Source: an uncultured Phycisphaerales bacterium (GTDB lineage: Bacteria > Planctomycetota > Phycisphaerae > SM23-33 > FEN-1343). From it: DNA of 64,000 nt. Below the pieces are notes generated by a model, which ran no database searches, was not told the origin of the DNA, and saw only the letters and a list, made by a program, of their open reading frames with translations. The stretch covers positions 114,199 to 178,198 of the forward strand of contig CAWAWB010000007.1 in assembly GCA_963785635.1 (NCBI GenBank). Direction: 5' to 3'. Shown piece by piece: positions 7,074 through 49,718 of this stretch (its first letter is position 1; each line of letters opens with the position of its first letter). Position numbers and translations under genes: made by a program.

Positions 7074-8008
7074 CTATAGACCGGGGGCGGATCCTTCCGC
7101 CGCCCATTCGAAGCAGCGCAGCTTGGCGCTGCGGCTGCGCGGATTACTCTGTATTTCCTCATCGTCAGGAACGATGGGCTTACGTGTAATGATTCTCCCA
7201 AATCCGTCGGATTTCCAAGAAGAAAATGCAGATTTTACAGGACGATCTTCCAGCGAGTGAAAACTGATGATGGCCACGCGGCCGCCGGGGCGGCGCAGGC
7301 GGGGCAGGCCCTTCAGGAGCGAGCGCAGCGAGTCGAGCTCCTTATTCACCGCGATGCGCAGGGCCTGGAAGGTCCGCGTCGCCGGATGAATGCCCTTGGT
7401 GTGATGGCGGCGATACGCCGCCATGACGATGTCCGCCAACTGAGAAGTTCGTTCGATGGGTCCGGTTTTCCGGGCATTAATAATGTAGCGGGCGATCTGC
7501 CGGCTGCGCCGCTCATCGGCATAGTTGAAGATCAAATCCGCTAGTTTCTGCTCGGAAAGTTTGTTGACCAGATCGGCCGCGGTGGGGTTGTCGCCGCCGG
7601 CATCCATGCGCATGTCCAGCGGACCATCGGCGCTGAAACTGAAGCCGCGGGCAGGATCATCCAGTTGCGTGGAGGCCACGCCCAGGTCGGCCAGCACAAC
7701 ATCCGGCTTTTTCATCTCGGCGGCCTGGAGAATCTCCTTGATATCGCCGTAGTCGGCGTGGAAGAAGCGAAGGCGATTCTTCGAGGAATCCTGGAACTTT
7801 TCCAGCCGCTCCTTGGCCCGGCGGAGATTCTGCTCATCCTTGTCGATGGCCACGAGGCGACATTCGCTGGATGCCCGTTCCAGCAGCATTTCGGCGTGGC
7901 CGCCCAGGCCGACCGTGCAGTCGACGATGTTGAGGCGGCGCTGGGGCTCCAGCAACTCCACCACTTTTGAGCCCAGGACGGGCGTATGCCCCGACTGGCC
8001 TGACATGC
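7074..8008 (-). CDS. rsmH: 16S rRNA (cytosine1402-N4)-methyltransferase RsmH/MraW
   Basis: The sequence HTPVLGSKVVELLEP...DCTVGLGGHAEMLLE is a typical RsmH N-terminus. The longest ORF extends to 8261, but the probable start is the ATG at 8008 after a GAGG. The gene follows mraZ. Confidence 0.8.
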
Positions 8009-8392
8009 CGCAACCTCTAGGCGCCCTTGCGCCGCTCGACGCAAGCCGCTTCTTTAATTCGGGAGAAAAGTCCACCCGGGCATACTCACCCCCCAGGGCC
8101 TGAACTCTCGCCAGCCGTTCAGCCAATTCCGCTAGGCGCTGCCGGGTAATCCTGCCGGGAATTGCTGGGTCCGCCTGGACGGCACGAGGTTCGGCGACTT
8201 TAGCGGCCTGGCTTCCCTGCCGGGCCTTCAGGTCGCTCGCGGCCGACTGAAGGGTGAGCATGACGGAATCCTTTCACACCGGGTGAAACTCTTCTCATCA
8301 AAGTCCGTCCGCAGTGGCGACGCCATCCATGGCATCGCCGCGGCGGCAGACACGCGTGCTACGGTGAATCATCCGTGAACGGTTCACTTTCG

Positions 8393-8869
8393 CTAATTAG
8401 AGGGCGGCGGCAGAACTGACCCCGAAAGCTGCTCGCCCATCTCCAACATCGCCTCGTCATAGCCGGGCAGTTGCTCCTGCAAATGCCCGTCCCACTCGTC
8501 GCGCGGCCAGATCTCAATGTGGTCGTCGTGGCCGACCAAAGTCACCTGCTCGCCGATCACGGCCCGCTGCATCGACTTTTCCGGCAGCACTATGCGGCCC
8601 TGCTTATCCGGCAGGAGGTAGCGGGCCATCGCGAAAAACAGGCCCAACCTCTCGCCGCTGCGCGTGGGCAGCGGAGAACGCTTCAAGCTGGCGGTCAAGC
8701 GGCGGTAGTAGCCGTCCGGGTAAAGCCACAAATGCTTCTTAATGCCCAGGACGAGGAAAAAACCCTGCCCGTCCTGAACCGGATCGATCTGCTCCCGCAG
8801 CGCGGCGGGGATAGCCAGCCGGCGTTTATCATCCAGAGCCTGATCGAACTCTCCGACAAATAGTGCCAT
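8393..8869 (-). CDS. mraZ: Transcriptional regulator MraZ
   Basis: 158 aa beginning MALFVGEFDQALDDKRRLAIPAALRE, a duplicated MraZ-type fold. It is the first gene of the dcw cluster. Confidence 0.85.
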   Translation of the reverse strand: MALFVGEFDQALDDKRRLAIPAALREQIDPVQDGQGFFLVLGIKKHLWLYPDGYYRRLTASLKRSPLPTRSGERLGLFFAMARYLLPDKQGRIVLPEKSMQRAVIGEQVTLVGHDDHIEIWPRDEWDGHLQEQLPGYDEAMLEMGEQLSGSVLPPPSN

Positions 8870-9070
8870 GGCGTTTTACCCTGTTCACACCGCCGCTTGG
8901 GACAGGTAGGGAAATTACACCATTTTGTGGTACGCTGCAAGAGCCTGAATAAGAATTTTTTTATTTTTCTTCAACCTGCAACTTCATGCGGCCCGATAAG
9001 TTGTGGTTTCACCACAAGATATTGGGGGTGAGATTTGTGTGGATACTAGTTGTAGGGCCTCAGATTTTTT

Positions 9071-9175
9071 CAGATTGCCAACATTCCAGCTTTGGCAACC
9101 TGGTTGGCAATCTGAAAAGCCTATGTGGCGACAGCAGTTACAGCTCCAGATTGCCAAAATTTCCAGATTGCCAAC
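9071..9175. repeat. Array of CCAGATTGCCAA motifs (5 copies, mixed orientation) in the mraZ upstream region. Copy 1 of a ~110-bp element also found at 24634..24738
   Basis: Copies sit at 9071 (fwd), 9092 (rev, variant CCAGGTTGCCAA), 9104 (rev), 9146 (fwd) and 9164 (fwd). The order and spacing match the element at 24634-24738. Confidence 0.6.
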
Positions 9176-9242
9176 TCACAGTCACCCCGCCTCGGCGTGA
9201 GGACATGCATCTTCTTTTTCCGGGGGTTTCGTCAAGCCTGAT

Positions 9243-10376
9243 TCAGTTCCCCTGATACCGCACAAAACTCACCAGATCGCGCAGCCACTGGCCATCATCC
9301 ACATCTTCGCTGGTGGTGGAATCCTGCTCGACGAGCACAAGGAGCGTATTGACGGGCCGATTGATGCGGGCGCTGGCGCCGAGTTTTTCGGCCAGGCTCA
9401 TAACAGAGCTTGCTTCCGCGTCCGAGACGAGCGCAGCTGTCATCATCCTGCGTGAGTTTTGGATCTATTACGGCCAAAGTGAGCTTGCCAAAAGAGGCGG
9501 TATCAGACGTGCCTGTGGCGATAAAGACCTCGCCCTCCCAACGTCCTTCAATCACCACGACCGATGGCGGGGAATCCGCCGCCCAACTTGCCAGATAGAG
9601 TTTTGCCTGGCCCGTTAAGAGCGGCCAGATCGCCGCCGCTTCATCCTGCATGCCCTCCATGCTTCCCAGGCCGGCGGCCCTAGAACCCTGGTGAACCAGC
9701 ACAGCCGCGCTGGTGGGTTGAGAGTCGGCTTGAACGATGCAGCCGCGGGCGATCGAGGACGGCTTTTGTTCCAGCGCCACACGATCATCTGCCGCCCGGT
9801 CAAGTCGGTTTCCGCCAATGCGGCGCGGCAGCACATCCACGCCTGCCAGTAGTGGGCGGCTAAAAGCAGATCCTGCCGCGCGAACGTCAGCGGTTGTGCC
9901 AGCTCCACGATTGGATCTTTGGCCGCGGCAACCACGGATAATGCGTCCCCCATAGCTGCCACCACATGTGCATCTTTCTCGTAGCCGGGCGGCGCTGACT
10001 GGCGGTAGGAACGGATGGCCTCCCGCAGCGCGGCAAGCTGCGGCTCCTGGCAACCGGCGAGAATCGATTCTGACAGGTCCAAATGGCCTGCGCCCGCCAG
10101 GGCGATGGCCGCGGAGCGATATTGCTGCACCTGGCCATCGAGTTCCAGCGACTCAGCGAACAGTGCCGCGGCCGCTTTGGCATTGCCCGTGGATAGCGCC
10201 CACTCGGCCTGCTGCCAGACTTCCTCGGCCGAACGCGCATCGGCCTTGCTCGCCTCGCGTTTGCAACCTGACGTCAATATCAAAGCCGCCAGCAGTATCG
10301 CCAATAAAGGGAATGCCTTGCGGCGGATTTGTGAAGCGACGGCCCCGGCGTGGTTTGATGGAGGCCAAAAAATCAT
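9243..10376 (-). CDS. Hypothetical lipoprotein (apparent frameshifts)
   Basis: The N-terminus has a signal peptide plus lipobox (LAILLAALILTSGC). The reading continues through three overlapping minus-strand ORFs (9615..10376, 9295..10053, 9243..9446). Confidence 0.4.
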
Positions 10377-22263: not shown

Positions 22264-23392
22264 TCAGCAGATCCTGGCCGCGATGCACCACCTGCTCCAG
22301 CGCAGCTCGTTATTTTCAAACCGCGCCAGCACAAATTCCGCCTCCTGCCCCGCCGCCAGTTGCGGCAGTTCCAGATGGATGATGGAGGCCGGGATTAAGC
22401 TTTGCTGCCGCCAGGCATCGGCCAACGACCAACCGAGCTGGCACATCCGCTCAACGCAGCGATCCGCCTGGAACCAGTTGCCCGCCAGGAGGCGCATATC
22501 TTCTTTCAGGCTGCACCGGCCCTGCGGCTCGATAACTACATTGCCGTAATCCCCCGGCGGCAGGCTGGAAAGGCCGCTGGCATCGGAGACGAGAAAAACC
22601 TTGTCGCGCCCCTTGGCGGCCATCACGGCCATGATTAAATCACCCGGCAGATGCTGACCATCGGCGATCAGCCCCAGTTTCAGCCGCGGCTCTGCCAGCC
22701 AGGTCCATAATGGATTTTCGTGGCGGTGGATCATGGCCGGCGCGCCATTGCCGAAGTGCGTGACGATGTCGGCCCCGGCATCGATGGCCGCGCGAATGGA
22801 ATCGGCCTTGGGACCGCAGTGGCCCATTGAAATCCGCAGCCCTTCCTTCACCGCGCGGCGAATCGTCTCCAGCGCCCCAGGCAGTCTCCGGGTCCAGGTT
22901 GAACATCATGATCCGCCCGCCGGCCGCCTCCTGCATCTTCGCCCATTCATCCCAGTTGGGATCGCGCATGTATTTGGCCGGATGTGCGCCGCGCCAGCCA
23001 TCCTGGCGGGAGATGTACACGCCCTCGGAAAACGCGCCAAACCACAGGTGCTCCAGGTCCTCATCCGCCTGGACCAGCTTGTCGAAGGTGAGCAGGCTGG
23101 CCAGGAGCAGATCGAACGGGCAGGTGGACGTCGTAAACAGCGCGCGGCCGATGCCGTGACGGCGCAGATGGTCGGTGACGATGCGCAACCCCTGGGGCTT
23201 TTCGGCCAGATGATTGTTGGCGTAACCCAGCGCGCCATTGTGCTGGAGGTCCACCAGGGGCGGGGCGATCAGGGGCAGATCATCGCCCTTGCACGCCTGG
23301 ACGCTGGTGATCCGATCACCCGTGATGGTCACTTCGACCGCCTGGCCGGTCAGGGTTTTGCCGCGATATTTCTTCGCCATGCCGCTCTCCAT
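22264..23392 (-). CDS. nagA: N-acetylglucosamine-6-phosphate deacetylase NagA-like amidohydrolase (apparent frameshift near 22850)
   Basis: The N-terminal part (ORF 22640..23392) has the metal-binding VDLQHNGALG region. The C-terminal part (ORF 22264..22851) has ISMGHCGP...THFGNGAPAM, typical of NagA. Confidence 0.65.
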
Positions 23393-24475: not shown

Positions 24476-24600
24476 GGTTCGTTCCTTAAAGCGAAAACGT
24501 AAGCATAGCCGAATGGGGCAACCATTCAAGTGAACTTTGCCACAGTCTTGGCACTTGGGGCTTCAGGCTTGAGGAACTGCCGGAGGTATTTACGCCTCGC

Positions 24601-24745
24601 CTAATCCCCCGGATATGTTGCGGGGATTAGCTCCAGATTGCCAACTTGTTCTCCAGATTGCCAACCGTTGGCAATCTGGAAAAGTCCTGTTTTTATTGGC
24701 ATCTTTCGATAAGGTTGCCAAGATTTCCAGATTGCCAATATGCGT
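24601..24745. repeat. 30-bp palindrome (ctaatcccccggatatgttgcggggattag) followed by an array of CCAGATTGCCAA motifs (5 copies). Second copy of the element at 9071..9175
   Basis: Motif copies sit at 24634 (fwd), 24654 (fwd), 24668 (rev), 24713 (variant) and 24727 (fwd). The element lies just upstream of the C45-nagA operon start. Confidence 0.6.
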
Positions 24746-24839
24746 TAACCGAGGCCATACCGAGTGAATTTAGGCAAGATAGATAACCTGGGCAATGTTG
24801 GATTCGAATGGCTCGGCACCCAGAAGTCGGAAAAATCTG

Positions 24840-25110
24840 TGGAAAGGTGGCGAAGATGCGCAAGCTTGATTCACCTTGCGCACCTTCAAAAACAGCTCAA
24901 AAACTGGGCGTTTTTGCCCAAGGTGCGCAAGATGCGCAAGGTGCGCAACGCGAGTGGTGACCAAATGACCAATTTGGTCATTTGGTCAGTATTGTGTGGC
25001 GAACTGTTGGCGCCCTTCGGCCGTTTTTTGCACGTAAGTCCTTGTAAATAAAGGACCGGCTCGAAGAGTGCCACCGTCTAAACCCTTGGCACCCTTCCTG
25101 GCGCCCTTCG
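24840..25110. repeat. Composite intergenic repeat (R2 family) containing TTGCGCATCTTC-type units, a perfect 30-bp palindrome and CTTTATTTACAAGGACTTACG units
   Basis: aaggtgcgcaagatgcgcaaggtgcgcaa (24918-24950) and cacgtaagtccttgtaaataaagg (25031-25054) match, in inverted orientation, units at 52541-52700. The perfect palindrome tgaccaaatgaccaatttggtcatttggtca lies at 24959-24989. Confidence 0.55.
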
Positions 25111-25266
25111 GTTATCCCGCGCGGCAGTCTGGGCAAGCTGCACAATCTGGGCAAGATTCTGGTGAAGCTCTTGAAAGTAGATCAAGGTGGCCAAGAGGAG
25201 AGATTTGGCCACCTTGTTGATCGCTTTGAGCAACTAAATGTTCTTGTTAAGCCTTAAGCCTATTTA

Positions 25267-26205
25267 TCACGGCACCTCCAGGACGATCTTGCCGCGCGTG
25301 TGGCCGGACATGATATCCACCCAGGCGCGGTTGGCCTCATACAGCAGGTACGTCTTGCTCACCACCGTCTTGATGTCCCCGGCATTGGCCAGTTCGCCGA
25401 TCTGGCTGATCCGCTTGCTACTGGCCTGCATGCTGAAGATGGCCGCGTGGACGTTCTTTTTTGCGGCCAGGTCCGCATCCGGACGCTGCGTCAAGGCCAC
25501 GAGGAAGCCACCGGGCTTCAGGACCTGGAACGATTTTTCCTGGATCTCCCCGCCGATCGTATCCAGCACCACATCCACATCCTTGGCGATGGCCCAGAAG
25601 GCCTGGGTCTTGTAGTCGATGACCAGGTCGGCCCCTAGCGAGTTGACAAAGTCCGCGTTGGCCGCCGAGCAGGTGGCAATGACCCTCGCGCCCGCCCAGC
25701 GGGCAAACTGGACCGCAAAGCTGCCCACGCCGCCTGAGGCGCCGTGGATCAGCACGGTCTGGCCATCGCGGAGATTGGCCACCTCGAAAAGTCCCTGCCA
25801 GGCCGTCTGCCCCGCCAGCGGCACAGAGGCCGCCTGAATGTGGTTGAGCTTGGAGGGCTTGGGGCTGAGGAAATCCGCCTTCGTGACGGCGTACTGGGCG
25901 TACGAGCCGCCGCCGGGCGTACTGCCGAAGACTTCCTGGCCCTCGCGCAGATCGGTTGCGCCCTCGCCCACCGCTTCGATAATGCCGGAGAAATCGCCGC
26001 CGGGAATCCACGGGAATTTCAACTGGAGTAATTTACCCGTAGCCAGTTTGACATCCACCGGATTGACCGATGCCGCCTGGATGTGCACCAGCACCTGGTC
26101 GGCCGCGGGCATCGGTACATCCACATCCTCAAAGTGCAATTGTTCGGGGCCGCCATACTGGCCGATCCGCATGGCCTTCATGGTTTTGACGCGTACGGTC
26201 GTCAT
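25267..26205 (-). CDS. NADPH:quinone oxidoreductase / zinc-type alcohol dehydrogenase (MDR) family
   Basis: MKAMRIGQYGGPEQLHFEDVDVP...GASGGVGSFAVQFA. The start MTTVRVKTMKAM has GGAG upstream, and the longer ORF to 26463 is probably 5' read-through. Confidence 0.8.
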   Translation of the reverse strand: MTTVRVKTMKAMRIGQYGGPEQLHFEDVDVPMPAADQVLVHIQAASVNPVDVKLATGKLLQLKFPWIPGGDFSGIIEAVGEGATDLREGQEVFGSTPGGGSYAQYAVTKADFLSPKPSKLNHIQAASVPLAGQTAWQGLFEVANLRDGQTVLIHGASGGVGSFAVQFARWAGARVIATCSAANADFVNSLGADLVIDYKTQAFWAIAKDVDVVLDTIGGEIQEKSFQVLKPGGFLVALTQRPDADLAAKKNVHAAIFSMQASSKRISQIGELANAGDIKTVVSKTYLLYEANRAWVDIMSGHTRGKIVLEVP

Positions 26206-26517
26206 GACATCATCTCCTTGCATTCCAATTTCGTTTGCGACGCAGCCCCCGAGAATTCTATGCGCGTTTTTTGCCGACTGCGGGGATTGCCTGCTGAGAA
26301 ACCTAAACGAACAGCCGGCTCCGCCTTGCACCTCCAATCCCACCCAAAAGGGGCGCTTTTCCGCCTTCTTGTGTTGGCATTTGATTGTTGGAAAGGACAT
26401 TCCCCGGTCTCTTAGTCCGTTCCAGGCATAGAAGAAGCGAGGTGTGCTTACAACTACTTGCAAATTAATGAGTTAAAAAAGTTCGCAATTGGCGATTCGC
26501 AATCCGCAATCCTTATT

Positions 26518-27427
26518 CTACTTATGCACCTTGTCCTGAAGGTGCTTGCGGAAGAGTTCAACCAGCTTGTTATAGGTGGCATCATCCACGACCGGCGCAT
26601 TGGCCGATGCCGCGATGAGCGCACGCACCTGCTGCGGCGTGTTCATGCCGACCACCACGCCGGCCGTCTGTGCGCGGCTAAGCACCAGGCCCATGCCAAA
26701 CTTCACCCAGGATTGCGGCCGGCCGCCGAGCAACTTTTCCACGCGCTGGCGATGTTCCAGGAAGAGATGGCCGCGCTCGTTTTTCAAACGGTCCGTGGCG
26801 GGCAGGCTCTCCCAACTGCCGCGTTCATCGGATAGCGCCCCTTCCGCCAGCGGCTGAAAGGCGATCATGGTCTTGCCGACCTTCGCCAGCAAACCGTACG
26901 CATCGCCGGCAAAGAGGTACATGGAGTTCACATAGGCTGAAAGCGAACCCGCGCGGCCATCCGCCACGGCCGCGCGCAAAATCATCATCGTAGGCGAAGG
27001 CCGAGGTGGCCATGATTTTGCCGCTATCCAGGTACGGTGCGGCGAGGTCGAAGATCTTTGCCTCCTCCTCCCAAGTCCCCGCGCGAATCTGCAAAATCGC
27101 GATGCGCTGGGCCCGCAGGACAGTGAGTTGCCCATCCAGCCAGCGGCCAAATCCTGCAAGTGTAAGATCATTGGCCTCCGTAGGGCACTTGACCATGTGC
27201 AGCAGGTCCTGGCGTTCCGCGCGGCCGCGCAGAAACTCGCCTGTCTGCTCCTGGGCATCGTATTCGAAGCTGGAGTGGATGACATTGATCCCACTATCCA
27301 GCGCCTCATCCAGCGTGGCCTCGGCGACCTTCATATCCGCCGCGCCGCCGCCGGGGGCTCGCAAATAGCGCATCGTGCCGAAGAAAAGTTCCGAGACCTT
27401 CAGATCGCCCAGTTGGCGGAATTTCAT
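26518..27427 (-). CDS. Aldo/keto reductase family oxidoreductase (apparent frameshift near 26990)
   Basis: MKFRQLGDLKVSELFFGTMRY is a typical AKR N-terminus (ORF 26825..27454). The C-terminal half is in ORF 26518..27309. Confidence 0.7.
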
Positions 27428-27464
27428 ACCTTCCTCCCAATTTACAACGAACAACTAAAAGCTT

Positions 27465-29135
27465 TCATCGCCAACGAAAAAGCTTAAGTTTGGCTTCGCG
27501 TTCGAAGGCGTTGCAAACCTCGCGAAGGCGACGGCTTCTAAACTGCTTGAAGGCTGTCCAAACACCCTTTGTCCAGAGACCACTACCATCGTCGTATGGA
27601 ATTAAATGACTCTTCATTATCTCTTTAAATCTTCGCCCCAAGCGTTGCTTATAATGGTCAAGGTACTGTCGCGGAAGACGTGATCCTATCTTCTTGTTGT
27701 CTCTAGCCACAAGAAAACAAATGTTACAAAGACTGTTGTAGGTTCGGGAATCAGCGTGATTCTTAAGCTGCGCGCGTGGGAAGATGTGGTGTCTCTCATT
27801 TCTGTTGGCTACGCTCGCTATCTCTCGAATGGGAATGGCTCCTCCGTTATCTAGGTAACAAGGCTTTTGCTTTGCTAAGAGACAGAAAAACGCTCTCGAT
27901 CGTGAGGAACTAGATGAATACTCTGTGGCTTGTATATCCAATACTGGATCAAGACGTTCGTGAAAAACAAATGACCTTTGTGATCCTTGCGCAATTGATT
28001 TAAAAAACTTTGCATCGGATAGAATATTTCTGTGATACCCCCGGCCGCTATACCTCTGACCAACAGCCGTAGCCCAGAACCATTTTCTTATTTGGAGTGA
28101 TTGGTGTTTATTTGGCTGGCCCGTCTGGTAATAAAAAAAGGCCGTCAACGTTGCCAACATATTCGCGGAAGGTAGAAACGATTCGTTGTAAACTGGAAAG
28201 CGGTGATGCAGATAATCAACGGCATCACAAAAAGCATTTTGGAATTTCTTCCAGGTTTTTTTAAACTTCTTTATTTCATTGGGCTTATCTTTGAGACGCT
28301 TTGACAGGCGTTTGGCCATAGCATCAAGTTTTGGTGGCGCGCCTTTAGCATCCATAGGTTCATCAATAAGATTGAAAGCTAGCAGAATGGTTGCGACGTC
28401 TTTTATGGCAAAGACTTTTTCATGGATTCTCTGACGTAGCTCTTGAGCCATGGCTCTCACATCTATTGTCCCCATGATGGCTATGGCTCGATCTGCTGAA
28501 GTAATTCGCATCCCCTGCGAATTGATCCTGATGAACACTTCTCCAATTTCATCCATATTTTTCGTTCGAACCAAAACGTAAGGAACGACATAACTTAGCA
28601 GGCGTGATCGACATTTTTGAATTTTGCTCACTATTGACTTCGGGTATTTGCGGAAGTTGTTTTTCCAGTCTGGTGCCAAAATACCCTTAACAGGCACGTA
28701 CTCTCTTTCTATTGGTTGTCGATAGACAAATAGGGGCGATTCTTCTTTTCTTCGGTGAGAGTTGACTGAAAAACACAGATGACCGAATTTTATTTTCTTT
28801 CCAGCATCATTCTCCCGTTCCTCGCCTTCAAATGCTTGATGAATTACTGACAGTCTTTGTTGCCCGTCAATTACGAACCAGATGTGCCCATTGCCGGTAC
28901 TGAAAGCCGGAAGTACCCCTGTGGATTGCCGAATCAGGTGTGCTGATTGTTGGGGCAATTCCCAAAGGAAAAAAGAACCGATTGGCATCTGCCGATAGAT
29001 GCTGTCAAGTAGCTTGGCAGATCGACGAGGATCCCATACAAAATTTCGCTGGAGTTTAGGAATCGCAAAGCGTCTTTCCTGCAAATAACGGCGTAATGTT
29101 TGGATTTTGATCTTGCTGAAACTTGCTGGCTCCAT
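27465..29135 (-). CDS. GmrSD-like type IV (modification-dependent) restriction endonuclease, DUF262 + DUF1524
   Basis: The N-terminal DUF262 has QRNFVWD...IGSFFLW and DGQQR. The C-terminal DUF1524 His-Me finger has ERHHIFPRAQLKNHAD. The gene is visibly AT-richer than its flanks. Confidence 0.8.
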   Translation of the reverse strand: MEPASFSKIKIQTLRRYLQERRFAIPKLQRNFVWDPRRSAKLLDSIYRQMPIGSFFLWELPQQSAHLIRQSTGVLPAFSTGNGHIWFVIDGQQRLSVIHQAFEGEERENDAGKKIKFGHLCFSVNSHRRKEESPLFVYRQPIEREYVPVKGILAPDWKNNFRKYPKSIVSKIQKCRSRLLSYVVPYVLVRTKNMDEIGEVFIRINSQGMRITSADRAIAIMGTIDVRAMAQELRQRIHEKVFAIKDVATILLAFNLIDEPMDAKGAPPKLDAMAKRLSKRLKDKPNEIKKFKKTWKKFQNAFCDAVDYLHHRFPVYNESFLPSANMLATLTAFFYYQTGQPNKHQSLQIRKWFWATAVGQRYSGRGYHRNILSDAKFFKSIAQGSQRSFVFHERLDPVLDIQATEYSSSSSRSRAFFCLLAKQKPCYLDNGGAIPIREIASVANRNERHHIFPRAQLKNHADSRTYNSLCNICFLVARDNKKIGSRLPRQYLDHYKQRLGRRFKEIMKSHLIPYDDGSGLWTKGVWTAFKQFRSRRLREVCNAFEREAKLKLFRWR

Positions 29136-29401
29136 TTGGCTCTGTCCTTAGCTGTTGCTGACCTGACCACCCACAGCTAAGTTAGCTAATACTCAGGATT
29201 TCTCAAGGTAAATGTGACCGCGCCAAAGCGCAGAGAACTGTCCATTTTCGGTCGCCGTCTTTTCTGTCTTTGCCTTGCATCCTCGGCCTTCTTGCGTATA
29301 TTGGCCGCTTCGGAACTGCGCGGCGGTCGGCCGCCGCGGCCCTGGGAAATCCGGCTGACTGAACAATTAACGGGCGAACTTCTAAAGGCCCGATGACTTA
29401 G

Positions 29402-30718
<1,317 letters not shown>

Positions 30719-30752
30719 TCGGCGCGAGGGCGCCTTTTCGTTCCTCGCCCGG

Positions 30753-31202
30753 ATGACGTGCATGCTGCTGACGGTGAGCCTGGCGGTAGCCATTCTCGCC
30801 GCGGCCGCGCTGCTGCCTGCCTGGCAGCGGCGCGAGGATGCGCGCATGGAACGGGATGAGCTGGCCCGCCAGGTGTGGATCCAGCAGCGCGTGAGCCAGT
30901 ACAAGAGGGAACTGGCCGACGCCCTCAAGGATGATCCGCGCCAGACCGAGCAACTGCTCATCGAGCAGCAGAACCTCCACCCGCCCGATGCCGCGGCCGT
31001 GCCCATGGATGCAAAACCTGATCCCCCTCTCGTGCAGCAATTGGAGGCCAAGGCGCCCAAGGTTGCCCCTCCCAATCCCGCGCTGGAGAAGCTCGCTCAA
31101 CGCGTGGATGACCCCGCCACCCGTCGCGGATTATTGCTCGTTGCCGGCGTTTTGATGGTCGCGGCGATGATGCTCTTCCAGCCACCGAAGCGGCAGAAGT
31201 AG
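30753..31202 (+). CDS. Small membrane protein with TM helix and coiled coil, possibly an FtsB/DivIC-like septum-formation initiator
   Basis: MTCMLLTVSLAVAILAAAALL is followed by a charged, heptad-like segment. An eno-ftsB arrangement is known in other bacteria. Confidence 0.3.
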   Translation: MTCMLLTVSLAVAILAAAALLPAWQRREDARMERDELARQVWIQQRVSQYKRELADALKDDPRQTEQLLIEQQNLHPPDAAAVPMDAKPDPPLVQQLEAKAPKVAPPNPALEKLAQRVDDPATRRGLLLVAGVLMVAAMMLFQPPKRQK

Positions 31203-31284
31203 CCGCGAAAACTCCAAATCCCAAATTCCAAACGAAGGACAGACCGCCTGCGTGCCTAGGGCCGGCACATAACAAAACAAATAC

Positions 31285-31470
31285 GCAACACAAAAGAGCA
31301 CAAAGGTCACAAAGAGCACCAAGAACGGCCGGAAAAGGCTTTTAAAAAACTCTTCTGAAGTTCTTTTTGGTGAGCTTGGTGACCTTGGTGCTCTTGGTGA
31401 TTTAATGGTTCTTCTTACGTGTTTGGCTTGGTCCTGGTGGTCTTTGTGTTCCTCTTCACTTTTCATTGAC
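31285..31470. repeat. Hairpin repeat element of the CACAAAG family
   Basis: Left arm is cacaaaagagcacaaaggtcacaaagagcaccaag. The loop has aacggccggaaaagg. The right arm is the inverted ggtgaccttggtgctcttggtga...ggtctttgtgttcctc. Confidence 0.6.
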
Positions 31471-31528
31471 AAAAAAACCGAATTCTGGGACAAATATCCT
31501 CTCTAGCCCAAGATGAGGAAGTTGCATC

Positions 31529-34298
31529 ATGAGATCTTGCCCGCAGTGGTTCTGCTCCGATGTGTATCCCCTCCTGGAAAACCTTGAAGACCGCCTGTTG
31601 CTGAGCGCGGGCGATCTGACCTTCCTTCAGTCGTTCACCGATGGCAGCGGCGGCGTAAACGGCCTGGGCGGCGGATCCAACGCCATCGTCAGCCCGGACG
31701 GCCGCCAGGTGTACGTCGCCAGCGTGGCCGATAACGGCCTGGCCGTGTTCGACCGCGCTAGCGATACGGGCAAACTGACCTTCAACCAGGCGCTCATTAA
31801 CGGTCAAACCGATGCAAGCGGGAACACCATAAGCGGCCTGACCGGGGCGGATTGCCTCATCATCAGCCCTGACGGCCAATATGTATATGTCGGCAGCGCC
31901 ACGGATGATGCCATCGCTATCTTCAGCCGCGACACGGGCACGGGCAAACTCACCTTCCTCAGCGACCTCGTCAATAACGCCGACGGCGTCACGGGTCTGG
32001 ACAGCGTGAAATGGATCACGCTCAGCGGGGATGGCCAGGATTTATATGCCGTCGGCAGCAACGGCAATTCGCTGGCCGCCTTCAGCCGCGATGGAGCGAC
32101 GGGCGTACTGACTTTCATTCAGTCGCTGACGGATGGCACCGACAACGTGGACGGCCTGAGCACCCCTTGGTCCATTCAGGTCAGCCCGGATGGAAAGGAT
32201 GTGTATACTGCCGCGCGGGGAGATAATGGCATCGGCATCTTCTCCCGCGATGCGGCGACGGGCCTGCTGACGTTTGTATCTCTCGTGCAGGACGGCGCCG
32301 GCGGCGTGCAGAACCTGGCGACGCCCAGCATGGCTGTTGTGAGCGCCGACGGCCGCCACCTCTACGCCGCCTCCTACGGCGACAATGCCGTGGTGGTTTT
32401 CAATCGCAATGCCGACACCGGCGCGCTCACTTATTCGCAGTCCTACGTCAGCGGCTCCAATGGCATTAATTCGCTGGATGGTGTCCAGGATATCGTGCTC
32501 TCCGGCGATGGCAAATCGCTGTACGCGGCCGCCGCGACGGATAATTCCGTGGTGAACTTCGCCGTGGATAGCTCCACGGGCTTACTTACGTTCAAGCAGG
32601 TGGCCACGAACGGCACGGCGAGCATCGCGGGTCTGGCAGGCGTATCCGGCCTGGCCATTCCCGCCGATGGCCACAGCCTGTACGCCGTGGGCCATCTGAG
32701 CAACGCGCTGGCGGTATTCGACCGCGCCTTCAGCATGAGTATCCCCATCGGCGCCGGCGCGGCGGCGTTCATCACCTACACCGATAACGACGGCTCAACC
32801 GTCACCACGCGTCTGACTGGCGGCGGCACGGCCACGGTAAGTGTTTCCGGGTTTGACATGACCCAGAAATCAGAGTCTGCACGGGATTGTCATCTCCGGC
32901 AGTCACGTGGCCGGAGATGCCATCGCCCTCTCCGGCACAACTATTAAAAGCAACTTGAGCATCTCCACCTCCGGCGGCGCGATCGCGGGCACAACCATCG
33001 GCGACATCACAGGCAGCGACGTGCTGGGCAAACTTTCCGCGCCCAGTACGGACATTGGCGATGCAATCGCCATGACCGGCAGCGGCTACATCCGCACGAT
33101 TGATGTGCGGGATTTCGAAGACAACAGCTCGCTCACCATGGCTGGCAGCGGTCCGGCGAGCGGAATCACCATTTCCGCCGGGTCGATCGGGCAGGGTGTG
33201 GATTTTTCGCTGGCGGGCGCGCTGACCAAACTGACCGCCTTGAAGTGGACCTCCGGCACACTGGATGCGACCACGGCTAACAACATCACGATCACTGGCC
33301 GCACGGGCAGAGGCAGCGTAACGGCCGTGACCGGCGATTTTGGCGCGGATGTCACGCTGGATAAAGATGTCGACGGCGTTTCGCTGAAGAAGCTTTCCGT
33401 CGCGGCCTCCCTGGGCGGAAATATTACCGCCGCGGGCGATATCTGGCTGGTCAAGGCCGGCTCGGTGGATGTGGCAACGGTGACCGCGGACAACGTCCGC
33501 ACCGTGAGAGTCGATGGGCTCGTCTCCAACGGCACGATGGCCATCACCAACGCCATCAACAGCCTTCAGGCGGCGAGCTGGTCGGCCGGCACCATTGGGG
33601 CGGCCTCGATCGGAACGATCGATATCAAGGGCCGCCGCGCAAGTGGCGCGACGGCGGCCATCGCCGGCGATTTGGGCGCCACGGTCAACGCTGCCGCGGT
33701 TCGTACGGCCCGGATCGCGGGCAATTTCACCGGCGTCTGGACCGGCCACTCCATCAATACGATGAAGGTCGCCGGCGACATGACCGGCGCGACCATGACC
33801 TTCAACGCCGATGCGAGCAGCACCACGCTCGGAGTGAATAACCTGATCGTGACCGGCAAGATTGATAGCAGCACGATCACGTCCACTACCAGCCTCGGCT
33901 CGATCACCGCCGGCGGCATGGATGGCTCAAACATTTTTGTGGGCCTGAAATCCAACGCCATGCCGCAAGGCCGCAGCAATTTTGATACGGACCACCCCGC
34001 CTCGATCAATAGTCTGCGAATTCGGGGTCTGCGCGACGCCAACGGCAATTACGTCGACAGCTTCATCAATTCCAACGTGGCCGCGTGGCAGCTCGGGTCG
34101 GTGAGGCTGACGGATGTGCAGACGCATAATTCCGGCACGACCTTTGGCATCGTCGCGCACAGCATTAATTCCTACATGCGCGTCGATAACGGCATGGAGG
34201 CCGGCTCCACGGGCGGCCCCGTGGGCGGCACAAGCGACGTGACGGGCAGCCCCTTGACCATCGAGCACCCCAGCGATTTCTGGGTGCGCTTGCTATAA
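31529..34298 (+). CDS. Large secreted repeat protein: lactonase-type 7-bladed beta-propeller repeats followed by a repetitive Gly/Thr/Ala-rich beta-rich region (apparent frameshift near 32870-32910)
   Basis: The N-terminus has LENLEDRLLLSA. The motif SPDG(R/Q)xVYVAS..DN.LAVF.RD..TGxLTF recurs at least six times. The protein continues in ORF 32907..34298. Confidence 0.55.
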
Positions 34299-41687: not shown

Positions 41688-43495
41688 CGGATCTTTATTT
41701 CGCGGTTGGTTCGCCTGCGGTTTCCACGCGCACAAGCGACACATCCCCGCGCGTGGCGAGCACATCGACCTGGGCGATGCCGGGCGTCCGCCACAGCTGC
41801 GCTAACCTTATGGCCGAAGTCTTTGGTGTCGTTGATCAGGCCGTAGGCCTCGCGGCCGCCCAGCAGCCATTTTTGCAGCCGCGCCTGCTCGGTATCTCCG
41901 AATCGCTCGGGATTATCCCAGCCGGTGTAAAGCTGGAAAGACCAGCGGGCGGATGGCCACGTGAAAAATCGCTCCGGCTTGGCCACATCGGCAGGCAAAG
42001 CACGGGCAAAATAGCGGGCGCTGGAGCGATCATACAGCGGCCACAGCACGGCGATCACGCTGATCCAGGCGACCATGGCCGCGCAAATGCAGTAGGCGAA
42101 GGCGACGGATTTGGGGCCGTTCTTGCGGGCCCGATAGACCGCCAGCCACGCCAGTACGACCGTGACGGCAGGTCCAATGAGCACCGGCTGGCGGAGCCGG
42201 GTCCAGGGTTCCACCGCCGCCAGCACGGCGCTAAGGTCCCAGGAACTCTTCCACTTGGCCAGCAGCGTGCAGATACGGAACGTCGCCACAGGGACCGCCG
42301 CCAGCAGCGCCACGCCGACAATGCACAAGGCCAAGGCGGGCAGGCCTTTTCTCATAAGGCCATCAAGCTCGTCCGATTTGAACCACTCAGCCACAAACAG
42401 CCCCGTGAGCACCGCCAGGGCGCAAAGAGCGGCATGATGTACTGAGCTTCCTTGCGCGGGTGATGGTCACGATGAGTGAGGGCACGAGCACGGCCATCCA
42501 GAGCAAAAACCGCGGGTTCTGCACGAGCCGAATGCCGGGTTGTTTGAGCGCCCGGATGACCACGCCCGGCAGCAGCGCCGTCCAGGGCATGAGGCCCAGC
42601 AGGAGGATGGGCACGTAGTAAAATGCCGGCCAGGGCTTGCCCAGGTCGGTGGAGCCGGTGAAGCGTTGCACATTCTGGTGGGCGAAGAACTCGTTGAAAA
42701 ATGTCCGATCCCTGAAAAACACCGCCACGTACCACGGCGCGGCAATGGCCAGGAAGACCAGGATCCCCAGCGGGTGAAAGACGCCCAGCAGTCGCTTCAG
42801 TTGCTGCCGCGCGGCGAGGTAGGCGAAAATAATGAGCAAGGGCATGACCAGCCCAGCGGGTCCTTTAACCAGCGTGGCGACGGCGGCGAAGAAGTAAAAG
42901 CCAATCCAGCCCTGCCAGATCGAGTTTGGTGTTTTGCGCGTCGCCAGAGCGTTTTCACGTTCCATATCCGCCCGGGCGAACCACCACACCGCCGCCAGCA
43001 TCGCGGCAGTAAAAGCCATGTCCATGCGATACCAGCGGGCGACAAAGAGGAACTCTCCCGTTGTGGCCAAAACGGCCGCGGCTGCCAGCCCGGCCGCGCG
43101 GCCGCCAAGCCGTTTGGCCCAGGAGTAGGCGATCAGCACGGCCAGGCAGCCGGCGATGGCCGAGACCAGACGGCCGGCCAGTTGAACGCTGCCCACCTTG
43201 CCGAACAGCGGCTCGGTGGCTTTTTGCGCGGCGGCGGCGAGCCAGAAAAAGGCAGCGGGCTTTTTGCTGTTGGCGATAAGCCAGTTGCCGCTGTCGAGCA
43301 TTTGCTGCACGGCCACGGCGCACCGGGATTCATCCGGGTCCATCGCAGGCAGTCGCGTCGAGCGGCAGAGAAACAGAATCAGCGAGGCCAGAACGATAAG
43401 CAGCCAGTCCAAATGGTACGCGGGCCTGGCGGCGGCCTGCTCAACTGAAGCCGCCTGGCCAGCCGACTCGGAAGCAAGAGATTGTTGGGACATTG
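41684..43495 (-). CDS. ArnT/PMT-like (GT39/GT83-type) membrane glycosyltransferase (apparent frameshift near 42400)
   Basis: The start is MSQQSLASESAG. Many TM helices. The segment RLPAMDPDESRCAVAVQQMLDSGNWLIANSKKP is a DE-motif loop typical of the family. It continues in ORF 41684..42412. Confidence 0.55.
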
Positions 43496-43605: not shown

Positions 43606-44651
43606 ATGCTCAAACGCAGTGAGAATAATCCGCTGATCACGCCGCAATCGATCCAGCCGAGCCGAGGCGATGTGGAGGTGTACTGCACCATCAATCCCGC
43701 GGCGACGTGGCACGAAGGACAGGCGCTCTTGATGCTGCGCGTGGGCGAGCGGCCGATTCAGCAGGAGGGCTGGATATCTTCGCTGGTGTACGACCACTGC
43801 GGCGGGCAGATGAATATCCGCCGATTTTCGGTGAGCGATCCTGAAGTGAAAATCCTGGACGGGCGGACGTTTGAATATCAGGGCCGACGCATGCTCACCA
43901 GCCTGTCGCACCTGCGCATCGCCCGCAGCGGTGACCTGAAAACGTGGACCATCGACCCTGCGCCCGCGGTTTATCCCACAACTGAGTGGGAATCGTACGG
44001 CTGCGAGGATGCGCGGATCACCCCCTTAAACGGCCGCTACTACATCACGTACACGGCGGTCAGCCACCTGGGCGTCAACGTCATGCTGGCGGTGACGGAT
44101 GATTTCAAGGAGTATCAGAAGCTGGGCATCATCGCCCCCACCTTCAACAAGGATGTGTGCATCTTTCCCAAGAAAGTAAACCGGCGGTACGTCTGCCGGC
44201 ACCGCCCCTTCCGCACAGTTTTCAATGACCCGTGCATCTGGACGGCCTGGTCGCCGGATTTGTACCACTGGGGCGTGCATTCAGTATTGCACAGACCAGT
44301 GCCCGGCACATGGCAATCGGAGCGCGTGGGCGCGGGGCGCCGCCTATCCGCACGCATGCCGGCTGGCTGGAGATTTTCCACGGCAGCGACATCAATGGCC
44401 AGTACGGCCTGGCGGCGATGCTTACGGAACTGGAGCGGCCCGACCGGCTGATCGGCTATTCCGACCCGGTGCTGGCGCCCAAAGAGCCCTACGAGCAGAG
44501 CGGCGTGTACAGCCGGTGCGTCTTTTCCAACGGCGTGCTGGCGCACAAGGATGGCCGGCTGACCGTTTTCTACGGCGGTGCCGACACGGTCACCTGCGCC
44601 GCCGAGACGACGATCGATGAGATGATTGCGACCGTGCAGAACAGACGTTGA
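43606..44651 (+). CDS. GH130-family glycoside phosphorylase/hydrolase-like protein (apparent frameshift near 44290)
   Basis: MLKRSENNPLITPQ...EDARITPLNGRYYITYTA. The C-terminus is in ORF 44232..44651 (LTVFYGGADTVTCAAETTIDEMI). Confidence 0.55.
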
Positions 44652-45916: not shown

Positions 45917-48900
45917 TCACCCGCCGCTACGGGGCTTTTCGCCGAACTGGATGTCTACGCCCGCCTTGGTGCGGACGATCTTGAAGCGCGGGTAGGGCGT
46001 GGGCGAGAGCACCTGCTTGGAGTCCTGGTAGAAGACGTAGGCATTGGTGGCATCGGAGCCTTTCTCATCGCCCGTGACGAGAATGGTGTCCGTGTCGCCA
46101 TCAAAATTCAGGCGGCCGCCATAGCACTCGAGCGTGGAGGCCGAGGTGTTCTTCAGCCGCACGGCGTGAACCGCCTCAAGCCTGTCGAGGTCCAGGTGCA
46201 GATCATCCATGGTTGGTGTAGAGGGAGCAGTCGTTGTGGGTTTGGGCGCGTTGGTGAAGCGGGCGGTCAGATACCCGCAATCCAGTTCGCTGAGCTGGCC
46301 GGCGCCCATGGGCAGATCGGGCCGAATGTGCAGAGTTTCCTGGGCCACGATGCGCTTGCCGCTGGCCCAGCGGAACTGCACCGCGCCGGGGCCCGGATTG
46401 GCGGCGTCGGGGTTATCAAGCTGGGCCACCCAGGCCTTGCCATCGGGACGGGAGAGCCGCATCTGGCGGCTCCAGTTGAAGATCATCTGGCTGGGCCGCT
46501 CTGTCTGCTGGGGCATCAGGGGATCGCGATCGATCTGCGCGACCTGCCGCTGCGCCGAGGGGACCAGCGGCGGACGATAATCTTCGACGACCATCACGCC
46601 GTCGCCGCTAGCAACCATTTCGCCCGTGCGGCGGTTGGTCTGGATGTCCTGGCTGCGAACGAGCATGCGCCGCTGGAGATAGCCTGCCTCATCATCCACC
46701 TGCATGGACAGCCGCACATCAGTTGTGGCGTGTACGGTCTGGACCAGGCGGCGGCCCAGAAGGGCGGAACTCGAATCGGCCTGCGAGGCGGCCGGCCTGC
46801 TGGCGGCCGGTTTATTCTGAGGCGCGACGGCCAAGGCCAGCTTGAGCTTCTGGCAGCGCATGTGATCGCCCGGACCTTGGTCAGCCGGCAAAGAGCCGGG
46901 GGCGACGGGCCAAGTGAGGTTATCCATACTATCGAACGCCACATTTCCGGTCAGCGTCAAACGATCCTGGATGGGATCATCCTCGCCCTGCGGGATAGTG
47001 TCAGGAGCGGCCATGGCCAGGGCCTCTCGATCGGCCGGGACAAACACCATGCGCTGATCCCAGCGCACCAGAGCGGGCCGGGGCTGCGACAGCGGGCGGC
47101 CGTTCAGGTCCTCCGCCAGCAGCGTATAGGCGTTGCCGGGACACGGCACCTCGACCCGTAAAAGCTGGTTGTTCGGGTCGGTGTGCAGGACCATGTTCTG
47201 GGCCATCATGTGCGTGTTGCCCTGCGTGACCGTGGCGGGCGTGCCGGAAAGGTAATGCTCCCCCTTCTCCAGGCTGCTGGTGAGCGTGTCGCCTTCGATG
47301 CGCAGATGCTGCTCGGGCTGGATCAGAATCACGCCGCCCGAGGCATCGATCTTGGTAGCCACGAAGGGCGTCTTGCGGGCCTTCTGCTCCAGATCGCCGG
47401 CGGGTCGCAGGAAGATTGAAACTCGATCCGAGGCCAGTTCGCCTGCGGAAGTTTTTTCACTGCTCGGCGGGCCCTGGGTGAATGATTCGGCCATATCGCC
47501 ACGGATGTGCACATTCTCCCAGGCATCCACGCGTTCGATGCGCGGCAGCGAGCTGCGCTCGTGGGACTGGGCGGCGGTTTGCGCCCGCCGGGGCGAAGGG
47601 AATCCGCATGTGCTCGGCGGACATTTGGCCGCTGCGGGCGTGAAATACCGCCTGGCCTTCCAGCGTGGCCAGCGTGGGCTGGCGGTCCACGCGGCCGTTG
47701 GCATCGGGCTGAACCTTGTATTCCAGCACCATGCCTCGCTGCCACTGGACGCTGGAGGAATCGGCCGGGGTGCTGGCCGGGGCTGAAGCGGCCGCGCGTT
47801 GGGTGAGGTTTATGGTTCCAGGCCCGTCGATGCGGGCCGCGCCGGCCTTGTCGTCCAATTTGATGTCGCGGCCGACAACTTTTACGCCGTCGCCGGTGGT
47901 CATCTCCACCAGCCGATCGGAGGCGGAGGCCAGGCGGCCCCAATCGCCCTGGGTTTCAAACAGGTCGCAATTGGCCGCCACGTCGACGACATGCGAGGGG
48001 GCCACTGATTGCTCCGCGTGTTTTTGCCCCCGCGCGAAAACTTTTTTGAAGGTTCCCAGGCTCATCCTGCTGCCCATCAGCGAACCGTTGGCCACAATGC
48101 GCGGCTGCGTGGTTGACGGCGCGGGAATATTGGGATCCGCCGGCACGAGCTCCAGCGAGCCGGCCCATTGAATCTCAGTGGCATCCTCGCCCACCTGATT
48201 CAACCTTTTTGCCTCCGGCGCGCTGGCCGTGGCAGCGCCCCCCGCCGCTGAGGAAGCGGCACCGTTGCCTTCGCCGCCGGCTGCGGCGGGTTTCACCATG
48301 CTCTTGCTGAGCTTGTACGTGAACAAGGCTTCCAGGTTGTTGGCGTCCTTAAGCCAGCCGCGGGCGCTGGTCACCTGGATGCTGTCGGCTAACTTGAGGT
48401 CATACGCGGTTGTTTCGGGAGCGGACTGTGAAACTGGAGCCGGTTGGGTCTCGGCAGATGATGCCGTCGCCGCCGGAGATGATGAGGCAGCCGCCTGCTG
48501 CTCCTGGCGCGGCTGTTTTAGCAGCGCCGGGTCCAAGCGGATCGTTCCCGCCCCAGCCAGCCGCAAACGCCTAAGCGTCCACGGCGTGGGCGCCTCGATC
48601 ATGTTCCAACTGAAGGAGAGGTCGCGGCTCTGCAATTCCAGGCCCGCGCCCTGGATGCGCACCGAGCCGGGCGCTTCCATTTCCTGGCGCTGGAGGTCCA
48701 GGTCCAGCCGCTCCAGATCGGCACGCAGGAGCTGGCCTGTATCCTCGCCGGACTGATCGGGCACGCGGGAAACGGTTATTTCAACGCCGTCCATCAGCGA
48801 GGCGAAGCGCGGCACGATCTTGCCGCCGGTGACATCCGCCACGATGGAGCCCTTGGCGGCCGTCAGCTTGATGGTCTGGCCGCTTTCGGGCAGGAGCTCG

Positions 48901-49202: not shown

Positions 49203-49718
49203 TTATTCGTATCGCTCCATAATTGATGTCCACTGCCCTGAGGCCTTCAGCAGTTTTTCGATGGCCCAGCGGACCGCGCCTTCACCGCCGCGCTGCGGGG
49301 CGACCCAGTCGGCGATGGCCTTGACCTCATCGACCGCATCGGCCGTGGTTATGGCCAGCCCGCAGGAGCGCATGCAGGGAATGTCGGGAAGATCGTCGCC
49401 GATGTAGGCCGTTCGTTCAGGGATTACTCTAAGTTCGGCGAGAATCTCCTCGAACACCGGGTATTTTAAAAGTGCGCCTTGGCGGATAATCGAAACGCCA
49501 AGCTCACCGCCGCGCCGATCGACGATGGGGCTTTGCCGGCCGGTCAGAAGTGCGCTGCGTTTGCCCGCGCGATGCCAGTACTTGATGCCCGCGCCGTCCC
49601 GGACGTTGAAGCTCTTGCTCTCCCCGCCTGCGTCGTCATAGATGATCCGGCCATCCGTCAGGACGCCGTCCACATCCAGCACGAGCAATTCGATTTTCGC
49701 GGGATCGTCCTTAGGCAT
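49203..49718 (-). CDS. kdsC: 3-deoxy-D-manno-octulosonate 8-phosphate phosphatase KdsC (HAD family)
   Basis: IELLVLDVDGVLTDGRIIY...AYIGDDLPDIP. Confidence 0.75.
   Translation of the reverse strand: MPKDDPAKIELLVLDVDGVLTDGRIIYDDAGGESKSFNVRDGAGIKYWHRAGKRSALLTGRQSPIVDRRGGELGVSIIRQGALLKYPVFEEILAELRVIPERTAYIGDDLPDIPCMRSCGLAITTADAVDEVKAIADWVAPQRGGEGAVRWAIEKLLKASGQWTSIMERYE

Follow-up and report, generated by a model that had tools for sequence, protein, structure and literature searches.

A solitary AT-rich gene for a GmrSD/BrxU-like protein between an aldo/keto reductase gene and eno in an uncultured Phycisphaerales bacterium

The 64,000-nucleotide stretch of Phycisphaerales DNA analysed here (the window), which its enolase sequence places in the Phycisphaerae (Planctomycetota), carries on its minus strand, at 27465..29135, a complete coding sequence with an ATG start and a TGA stop for a single-chain GmrSD/BrxU-like protein of 556 amino acids (aa), henceforth the nuclease gene. 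On its left, on the same strand, lies a host aldo/keto reductase gene (26518..27426; matched by Pfam on both halves of an open reading frame (ORF) that is frameshifted here, and delimited by the gene call on an independent contig, L001), and on its right, divergently transcribed, the host enolase gene eno (29414..30718, plus strand; Pfam Enolase_C, 1e-123), so that Pfam confirms both of the neighbours named in a preliminary description of this DNA. A spacer of 38 nucleotides (27427..27464, minus strand) lies between the nuclease stop codon and the start of the reductase gene. The ribosome-binding site of the reductase, GGGAGGAAGG, is located in it, directly after that stop codon, and a scan of this spacer found no terminator. 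Given such a short spacer, with a ribosome-binding site and no terminator, the nuclease gene and the reductase gene are likely to be co-transcribed. We read the nuclease gene, with a probability of about 0.72, as that of an intact, stand-alone, single-chain type IV restriction enzyme of the GmrSD/BrxU superfamily, acquired horizontally as a one-gene cassette; this reading draws on its composition, domain homology, catalytic-residue conservation, the lack of a conserved partner, its absence from the closest relative (L007) and the defence or Hma context of some homologues.

The nuclease gene has a GC content of 44.2%, against 60.3% for the window, in good agreement with an earlier by-eye estimate in the mid-40s. 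This is about 5 standard deviations below the mean of all 1671-bp segments of the window (60.2%, standard deviation 3.2%), the lowest of which begins at 27451. The GC contents of its three codon positions are 50.8/39.5/42.2%, as against 60.5/43.0/81.8% in eno, and its third-position value (GC3, 42%) is far from the 79 ± 3.6% of 20 host genes (z = -10.3); its synonymous codon-usage distance from the pool of these 20 genes is similarly aberrant (z = +5.4). Thus the departures in GC content and codon usage that the preliminary description had proposed to look for are both present. Of the in-frame ORFs in the window that reach 150 aa, it is also the only one whose GC3 is low, the remaining low-GC3 ORFs of this length or longer being off-frame shadows of high-GC3 genes. 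The AT-rich stretch as a whole spans ~27,400 to ~29,250. It had been described as running from ~27460 to ~29400, and its AT-richness stands, but the right limit was too generous, because the interval 29,270-29,413 has a normal GC content and can be aligned with the region upstream of eno in L007. An AT-rich 5' leader (29136..29260, minus strand), delimited by the GC profile, came in with the gene and holds a 14-nucleotide imperfect inverted repeat (29147-29181) that overlaps a possible AAGGA ribosome-binding site. The leader folds no better than shuffled sequences (z = -0.22), and an Rfam scan gave no match either in the island or in the whole window.

An exact-sequence look-up found no record of the protein, while a word-indexed search returned 1846 clusters at E <= 1e-3 and a search of a 50%-representative library 5114 matches at E <= 1e-3, with 212 at E <= 1e-30. 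From this library we drew 83 full-length homologues that are 23-53% identical to the window protein. The best non-self matches, proteins of ~557 aa that are 55-61% identical, come from metagenome-assembled genomes of Terriglobia/Acidobacteriota, Nitrospinae and Planctomyces; Pfam finds PF03235 only in them, and they are named, if at all, "DUF262 domain-containing protein". Within the tight subfamily that they form the window protein is an outlier, with a mean identity of 58% to the others as against 70% among those others, and its composition is AT-shifted (30.8% of the residues FYMINK, versus 25.8% in the subfamily).

The N-terminal DUF262 domain claimed by the preliminary description is readily confirmed: the Pfam model PF03235 (GmrSD_N/DUF262) matches residues 18-215 (28491..29084, minus strand) with an E of 2.1e-26 and 93.7 bits, well above its 33.2-bit cut-off, and it matches all 83 homologues as well. 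This is a DUF262 / ParB-Srx-like NTPase domain, and the motifs described for GmrS, namely QR, (I/V)(I/V)DGQQR and FxxxN (PMC4619093), are all present as Q29-R30, V88-I-D-G-Q-Q-R94 and F201-I-R-I-N205, each invariant in the family. The DGQQR motif itself (D90-R94; 28854..28868, minus strand, from the translation), which serves nucleotide binding and hydrolysis in GmrSD and BrxU (PMC4619093, PMC8565348), lies where it had been placed earlier. We compared the protein with BrxU, a GmrSD-family type IV restriction enzyme of Escherichia fergusonii plasmid pEFER (PDB 7P9K/7P9M; HEC-05 in PADLOC), whose R38-L-F-D-S42 aligns with K41-L-L-D-S45, the serine S45 again being invariant in the family. The domain motifs Q29-R30, K41-S45, D90-R94 and F201/N205 are unchanged in 42 close homologues and in the 83 distant ones alike. 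In a MAFFT alignment, S45, D90, Q92, Q93, R94 and H450 stand opposite the identical BrxU residues S42, D98, Q100, Q101, R102 and H475, the last of these being the catalytic histidine.

An all-helical linker (approximately residues 216-410; 27906..28490, minus strand), apparent in the secondary structure of the predicted model and aligned by hhalign with the linker of BrxU, leads to a DUF1524-type His-Me finger domain (approximately residues 411-556; 27468..27905, minus strand) that aligns with residues ~440-581 of BrxU. When the profile of the 83 homologues was used as the query and BrxU as the target, hhalign gave a probability of 99.9% and an E of 2.2e-31 over 485 columns (query 9-551 against BrxU 6-581), with the pairings KLLDS/RLFDS, DGQQR/DGQQR, HHIFP/DHIYP and NSLCNICFL..DN/NKLPNLQLL..NN. 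The plain sequence, searched against solved structures, found BrxU as its sole match, over the first ~60 residues only. HHIFP (27777..27791, minus strand, from the translation) is the counterpart of the (E/D)H-x-x-P catalytic motif, and NSLCNICFLVARDNK (27693..27737, minus strand, likewise from the translation), which hhalign sets against NKLPNLQLLEGTINN in BrxU, that of the L(G/A)NLxLLxxxN motif defined in PMC4619093, with N471 as the predicted structural and N480 as the predicted metal-binding asparagine. Conservation across the 83 homologues reaches at least 90% at H449, H450, F452 and P453, and likewise at N471 and N480. The acidic residue that precedes the catalytic histidine is replaced by H449, a histidine in at least 90% of the clade, and it is because of this clade-wide H-H-N-N variant without the acidic residue that we file the protein as a distinct branch, not as a canonical GmrSD. 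The DUF1524 domain that had been proposed from HHIFP therefore holds in substance, by the BrxU profile and the fold, but not by the Pfam profile suggested for it, since PF07510 (DUF1524) gives no match to the protein at E <= 1; the NCBIfam models give no match to it either. The PF07510 result is uninformative, because BrxU, with its solved and mutationally validated DUF1524 domain, also falls under the cut-off (17 bits against 23). Moreover, 8 of the 83 homologues have weak PF07510 matches, which in P0232 and P0238 are located on the equivalent C-terminal region.

Structure prediction with AlphaFold2 gave a predicted local distance difference test score (pLDDT) of 79 with a shallow alignment, and of 94.2, with a predicted template-modelling (TM) score of 0.90, with a diverse one. 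The better model has strands at 448-450 and 472-474 and a helix at 477-483, and the modelled element 448-483 is a beta-beta-alpha-metal finger around N471, H449/H450 on the first strand and N480 on the helix. In a Foldseek search of the PDB with this model BrxU (7p9k) was alone at E <= 0.001, its best match having an E of 1.5e-14 over 633 columns; the whole-chain TM-score is ~0.4, a value to be expected where domain orientations differ. The next matches were insignificant N-terminal ones to ParB CTPases. With the PF03235 match, the profile alignment and the fold match to BrxU all in agreement, the GmrSD-like type IV architecture proposed earlier is well founded. We also considered an HEPN reading of the R-x-x-R-H-H stretch, prompted by HEPN_Swt1 matches in 7 of the 83 homologues, and rejected it: the one such match that was located, in P0195, sits in an extra C-terminal extension (residues 554-639), and the shared region is modelled as strand-strand-helix. 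Some distant relatives of 650-950 aa, P0195 among them, carry a variety of added domains (HEPN_Swt1, DUF5655, Schlafen AlbA_2, DUF4268 and DUF4357), as though effectors or sensors had been exchanged on a common core.

Could the nuclease gene instead be a decaying or domesticated remnant that has lost its nuclease function and acts, for example, as a ParB/DndB-like nucleotide-binding regulator? The replacement of the acidic catalytic residue would be in keeping with this, as would a 2-bp deletion in the independent Logan contig L001 (run ERR11596056), which truncates the protein at residue 456, just past HHIFP. However, a histidine pair that occurs in at least 90% of the 83 homologues is the normal state of the clade and not a sign of decay, and the window copy is full length and has kept all of the family-invariant residues (by construction of the alignment, every column invariant in the 42 close homologues). 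The deletion, for its part, falls on one of three disputed GCGCGC sites and looks like a systematic sequence error. We consider a remnant quite improbable and retain the intact restriction enzyme as the better account.

Contig L001 is 99.75% identical to the window over 26264-29480 and carries the reductase gene, the nuclease gene and the start of eno contiguously and in the same placement. As this separately assembled contig spans both junctions, we take them to be real and not an assembly chimera. An artefact of assembly or binning, with foreign DNA joined into a Phycisphaerae contig, might have been suspected from the sharp compositional step and from frameshift-type errors in the assembly, but against the contiguity of L001, and with the reductase ribosome-binding site placed directly after the nuclease stop codon, such an origin is scarcely credible. 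The two sequences differ in only three clusters, at 26972, 27770 and 28337, and these are the positions of every GCGCGC in the 3.2-kb overlap; L001 has no GCGCGC at all. While one of the discrepancies truncates the nuclease in L001, another frameshifts the reductase in the window, where a net loss of 2 bases at a GCGCGC (26971-26975) produces the overlapping ORFs 26518-27309 and 26825-27454; the same reductase is intact in L001 (303 aa) and in L007. These GCGCGC-linked discrepancies look like a motif-specific sequencing or assembly error rather than gene decay, possibly caused by a methylated BssHII-type GCGCGC motif in the host, as in nanopore data. Elsewhere in the window, same-strand high-GC3 ORFs overlap in different frames and are candidate frameshifts, though some could be natural gene overlaps; they lie at 22264-22394, 22640-22905, 32862-32947, 42387-42466, 44229-44451, 47457-47809, 49711-49817, 51031-51119 and 51971-52131. 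An intact GCGCGC is present at 3 of 11 candidate junctions, with ~1.1 expected, which is too weak for a claim of enrichment. If the GCGCGC-error reading is right, then the many ORFs that are split in the GC-rich DNA of the host result from artefacts, and the nuclease gene, being AT-rich, has few such motifs and was spared for that reason. The observation that the nuclease gene is one of the few long ORFs here that is not frameshifted has a mundane explanation, the checked frameshifts sitting on GCGCGC sites where the assemblies disagree.

With respect to the origin of the gene, we compared the locus of the closest relative, L007, the best GTDB representative, "Phycisphaerales bacterium fen_1343", whose enolase has 90% aa identity. 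In L007 the reductase gene (71% nucleotide identity) and eno (83%) are retained and oriented to each other as in the window, and nothing between the two aligns. Its 905-bp gap has a normal GC content, encodes a GerE/LuxR regulator at 5349-5657 (minus strand; Pfam 1e-14) and holds no trace of a DUF262 gene, even at E = 10. On the eno-proximal side the similarity begins at ~29,270, and on the other side at the reductase ribosome-binding site; from these borders we delimit the foreign segment as ~27,440-29,260. As the slot in L007 is filled by a different gene, it does not constitute a clean empty site. Our searches for such a site, with the intact reductase protein, gave no match in genome contigs or metagenome contigs, and those with a two-sequence reductase alignment found only reductases that are 21-39% identical; in the absence of any closer locus, the insertion is bracketed by L007 only. 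The window has no tRNA gene, and at the borders of the island there is no integrase, target-site duplication or terminal inverted repeat, only short repeats at the level of chance. The reductase-eno slot is variable between lineages, and either the nuclease gene arrived once this lineage and that of L007 had separated, or L007 has lost it; a recent gain is favoured, because its GC3 is unameliorated. The donor appears unsampled, since, its own copy aside, nothing more than 61% identical is found among 5.8 billion proteins. Hence composition, codon usage and the absence from L007, where synteny of the reductase-eno pair is preserved without the DUF262 gene, together uphold the proposed horizontal acquisition of a lone gene. 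As a separate observation, the slot in L007 (5100-5660) also holds, beside the reductase start, a GC-rich element, GGGCGTCTCGCCC / GGGCGAGACGCCC, that is repeated several times and occurs in either orientation.

In addition to the window, we read the contexts of seven other distinct homologue loci. In four of the seven (L002, L006, L117 and L118) the homologue is solitary among metabolic genes. L118 closely resembles the window in this, since there a 56% identical homologue at 8001-9674 forms a solo AT-rich island (49% GC against 65.5% in the flanks) with metabolic neighbours; a gene-free gap of ~550 bp follows the homologue in L118, and likewise in L116 and L117. In the other three the homologue resides in a defence or mobile island: P0067 (L003/L004) is between HmaA and HmaB of a PADLOC-confirmed Hma system, P0116 (L116) comes after HmaB-HmaC, with PDDEXK, AAA and ZorA-like genes at its flanks, and P0077 (L005) has transposases, a methylase/HNH pair and OLD-type ATPases around it. 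In all seven of these loci the homologue is poorer in GC than its flanks, the difference ranging from 3 to 16.5 points. Across the eight loci, the window included, there is no common neighbour gene and no common non-coding sequence in the flanks. The Acidobacteriota Hma system just mentioned (L003 5695-17129 / L004 846-15858) comprises HmaA, HmaB and HmaC, the HmaB gene appearing split into two ORFs, with embedded genes for a DUF4062-HATPase_c_4 protein, a 178-aa protein without assigned function, the DUF262 homologue and a PDC-M05A-like protein. A scan of 2.9 million viral contigs with the family alignment gave no close relative, only a single N-terminal match of 26% identity, and a plasmid search found only distant relatives, DUF262 proteins that are 22-27% identical.

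The best PADLOC match of the protein is to PDC-M55C, with an E of 2.2e-36 and with residues 16-550 aligned to positions 22-539 of the 554 in the model, and the two probably belong to the same clade, to judge from this full-length similarity. We count this match in favour of a role in defence, together with the homologues in Hma and other defence islands and the lack of a close relative on viral contigs. PDC-M55C is the third gene of a multi-gene candidate (PDC-M55 A-C), and its match to the protein over the full length raises the question of whether the nuclease gene is an orphan component with little or no function without its partners. Its immediate neighbours, however, are the reductase and enolase genes, no neighbour is common to the seven other loci, and the neighbours scanned with PADLOC in L002-L006 included no PDC-M55A or B; moreover, an NTPase module and a nuclease module, sufficient together in BrxU and Eco94GmrSD (PMC8565348, PMC4619093), are both present in the protein. 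An orphan of this kind is therefore unlikely, and we continue to favour an enzyme that works as a single chain.

The surroundings of the island are those of a housekeeping region. Its near flanks encode a zinc-type alcohol dehydrogenase, the aldo/keto reductase, enolase and a beta-propeller lactonase-repeat protein, and further away there are Mur ligases, a PBP transpeptidase and glycoside hydrolases. Among the ~20 window genes that we scanned against Pfam there was no defence or DNA-modification family, several of them being without any Pfam match. The end of eno is overlapped by a 169-aa ORF (30693-31202) that L007 has conserved (55% aa identity); Pfam gives no significant family for this ORF, the "Sensor" and PycTM matches being faint and below threshold. 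The region 24530-25266 consists of ~740 bp of non-coding DNA with 48-53% GC and dense repeats of 9-nucleotide period (TGCGCAAGR), and also contains copies of TTGGCAATCTGGA, direct or palindromic; neither a convincing ORF nor a match to Rfam came to light in it. Short GC dips (46-50%) at 31200-31600 and 26200-26600 coincide with intergenic or gene-start regions.

How might such an enzyme work? By analogy with its relatives, we infer nuclease and NTPase activities, an anti-phage role and a dependence on DNA modification, the last of these from the family as a whole. The DUF262 domain would bind and hydrolyse a nucleotide through KLLDS and DGQQR (after BrxU, PMC8565348, and GmrSD, PMC4619093), and the turnover of this nucleotide would drive a cycle of conformational or oligomeric change, which in turn would allow the C-terminal His-Me finger to cut invading DNA carrying a base modification foreign to the host. 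In the active site, with roles given by homology, H450 would be the general base, H449 and N480 the metal ligands and N471 a structural residue. The host would require no partner methylase. The gene would have come from an unsampled donor of lower GC content as a ~1.8-kb cassette (~27,440-29,260) that was inserted between the enolase promoter and the reductase gene, with which it is now probably co-transcribed.

Several points weigh against the interpretation of the gene as a self-sufficient type IV enzyme. Our inspection covered 64 kb of the genome, and an unlinked partner or modification system could be located elsewhere. The PADLOC model with the best match represents one component (C) of a multi-gene candidate, whose partners may normally be needed, and the PDC systems are explicitly "untested" candidates identified by guilt-by-embedding. 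Both the Pfam DUF1524 model and all of the NCBIfam models miss the protein, as noted above, and a scan for a sigma-70-like promoter of the nuclease gene came up empty. Finally, as a histidine replaces D474, a residue that BrxU needs, the enzyme may differ in the chemistry of its catalysis or in the metal that it prefers.

This last point leads to a possible, if rather doubtful, extension of our interpretation, namely that the H-H-N-N PDC-M55C-like clade is a functionally distinct type of GmrSD-like nuclease with another signal and/or another metal chemistry. Such a clade could be common as solo genes, always compositionally foreign, in uncultured Acidobacteriota, Planctomycetota and Nitrospinota. 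Its signal might be something other than hydroxymethylcytosine (hmC) or glucosyl-hmC, for example another hypermodified base or a structure of replicating phage DNA, and its metal chemistry might be different, as histidine replaces the acidic ligand. A histidine in place of an acidic ligand recalls the H-H pair of the colicin-type HNH nucleases, and the metal preference could change with it. Perhaps, too, the enzyme has to coexist with cytosine methylation of GCGCGC in the host, a possibility at which the motif-specific sequence errors hint.

In view of all this, the annotation seems sound, and the gene a fairly ordinary stand-alone defence gene with which the current understanding of these enzymes stands. 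It is a clean case of a one-gene immune module in a housekeeping locus of a poorly studied phylum. Beyond the single locus, a large environmental clade labelled only "DUF262 domain-containing protein" would, by its motifs and alignments, comprise full BrxU-type NTPase-nucleases. On this branch PF07510 is unusable for ruling DUF1524 in or out, and the conserved His-His motif of the clade amounts to a natural experiment on the catalytic requirements of the GmrSD nuclease.

Among the known systems, the phosphorothioate-sensing nickase SspE, named in the preliminary description, has the same general logic of an N-terminal DUF262 NTPase and a C-terminal HNH-type nuclease. If the window protein were an SspE-like sensor of host phosphorothioate, or of another host mark, it would cut or nick unmarked DNA and would need unlinked ssp/dnd genes. 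Besides the shared logic, our first model, of lower quality, had a weak Foldseek match to the SspE C-terminal domain (7dri, E 0.015). However, the PADLOC SspE model matches insignificantly (E 0.028) and over residues 16-97 only, SspE is missing from the list of the 50 best matches that Foldseek gave for the pLDDT-94 model, and there is no ssp/dnd-type gene among the window genes scanned or in the eight homologue contexts. The length of 556 aa also fits BrxU (587 aa) and not the 771-position SspE model. The label "SspE-like" is accordingly dropped, and a sensor of this sort strikes us as very improbable; the type IV enzyme of the GmrSD/BrxU superfamily remains our choice.

Other DUF262 plus DUF1524 nucleases, HEC-06 and those of the TgvAB type, have been shown to protect against phage. 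HEC-05 (BrxU) and HEC-06 were both found by their embedding in Hma systems, the kind of context that P0067 also has, and shown to be protective, and DGQQR and (E)H mutants of GmrSD-like defence proteins lose their activity (10.1101/2024.01.29.577857). The HEC-06 hidden Markov models (HMMs) of PADLOC match only the first ~50-100 residues of the window protein (E 2e-4 to 0.03), and TgvAB, unlike it, is a two-protein system. PDC-M55 is similarly a multi-gene cassette, whereas the nuclease gene stands alone here. With the founding type IV enzymes that cut glucosyl-hmC DNA, EcoCT596 GmrSD and Eco94GmrSD, the protein shares the DUF262 motifs QR, (I/V)DGQQR and FxxxN and, in the same order as in GmrD, xH(I)xP, LxNxxxL...N and a C-terminal F/W...R...L helix (motifs as in PMC4619093). 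It differs from GmrSD in having H-H-N-N in place of (E/D)-H-N-N, in giving no PF07510 match, in lacking the NxxFxxKK motif and in the spacing of its two asparagines (9 residues apart, as against 8 in the published motif).

The closest comparison is nevertheless with BrxU. The PADLOC HEC-05 HMMs match with an E of 1.6e-28 in two or three separate stretches, the best of them covering residues 7-112 only, and the overall identity is only 14-18%. HHIFP takes the place of DHIYP, with a histidine where BrxU has D474, and the D474A mutant of BrxU loses phage resistance (PMC8565348). In the MAFFT alignment H460, K481 and Q490 stand opposite BrxU N485, N519 and E528, the conserved asparagine of the clade being the adjacent N480. 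Unlike BrxU, moreover, the nuclease gene is found outside BREX, alone between housekeeping genes. Both proteins, on the other hand, are single chains of comparable length with the same order of DUF262 domain, helical linker and DUF1524 domain, and both have the serine of RLFDS, the full DGQQR, the catalytic histidine and the two asparagine-containing motifs.

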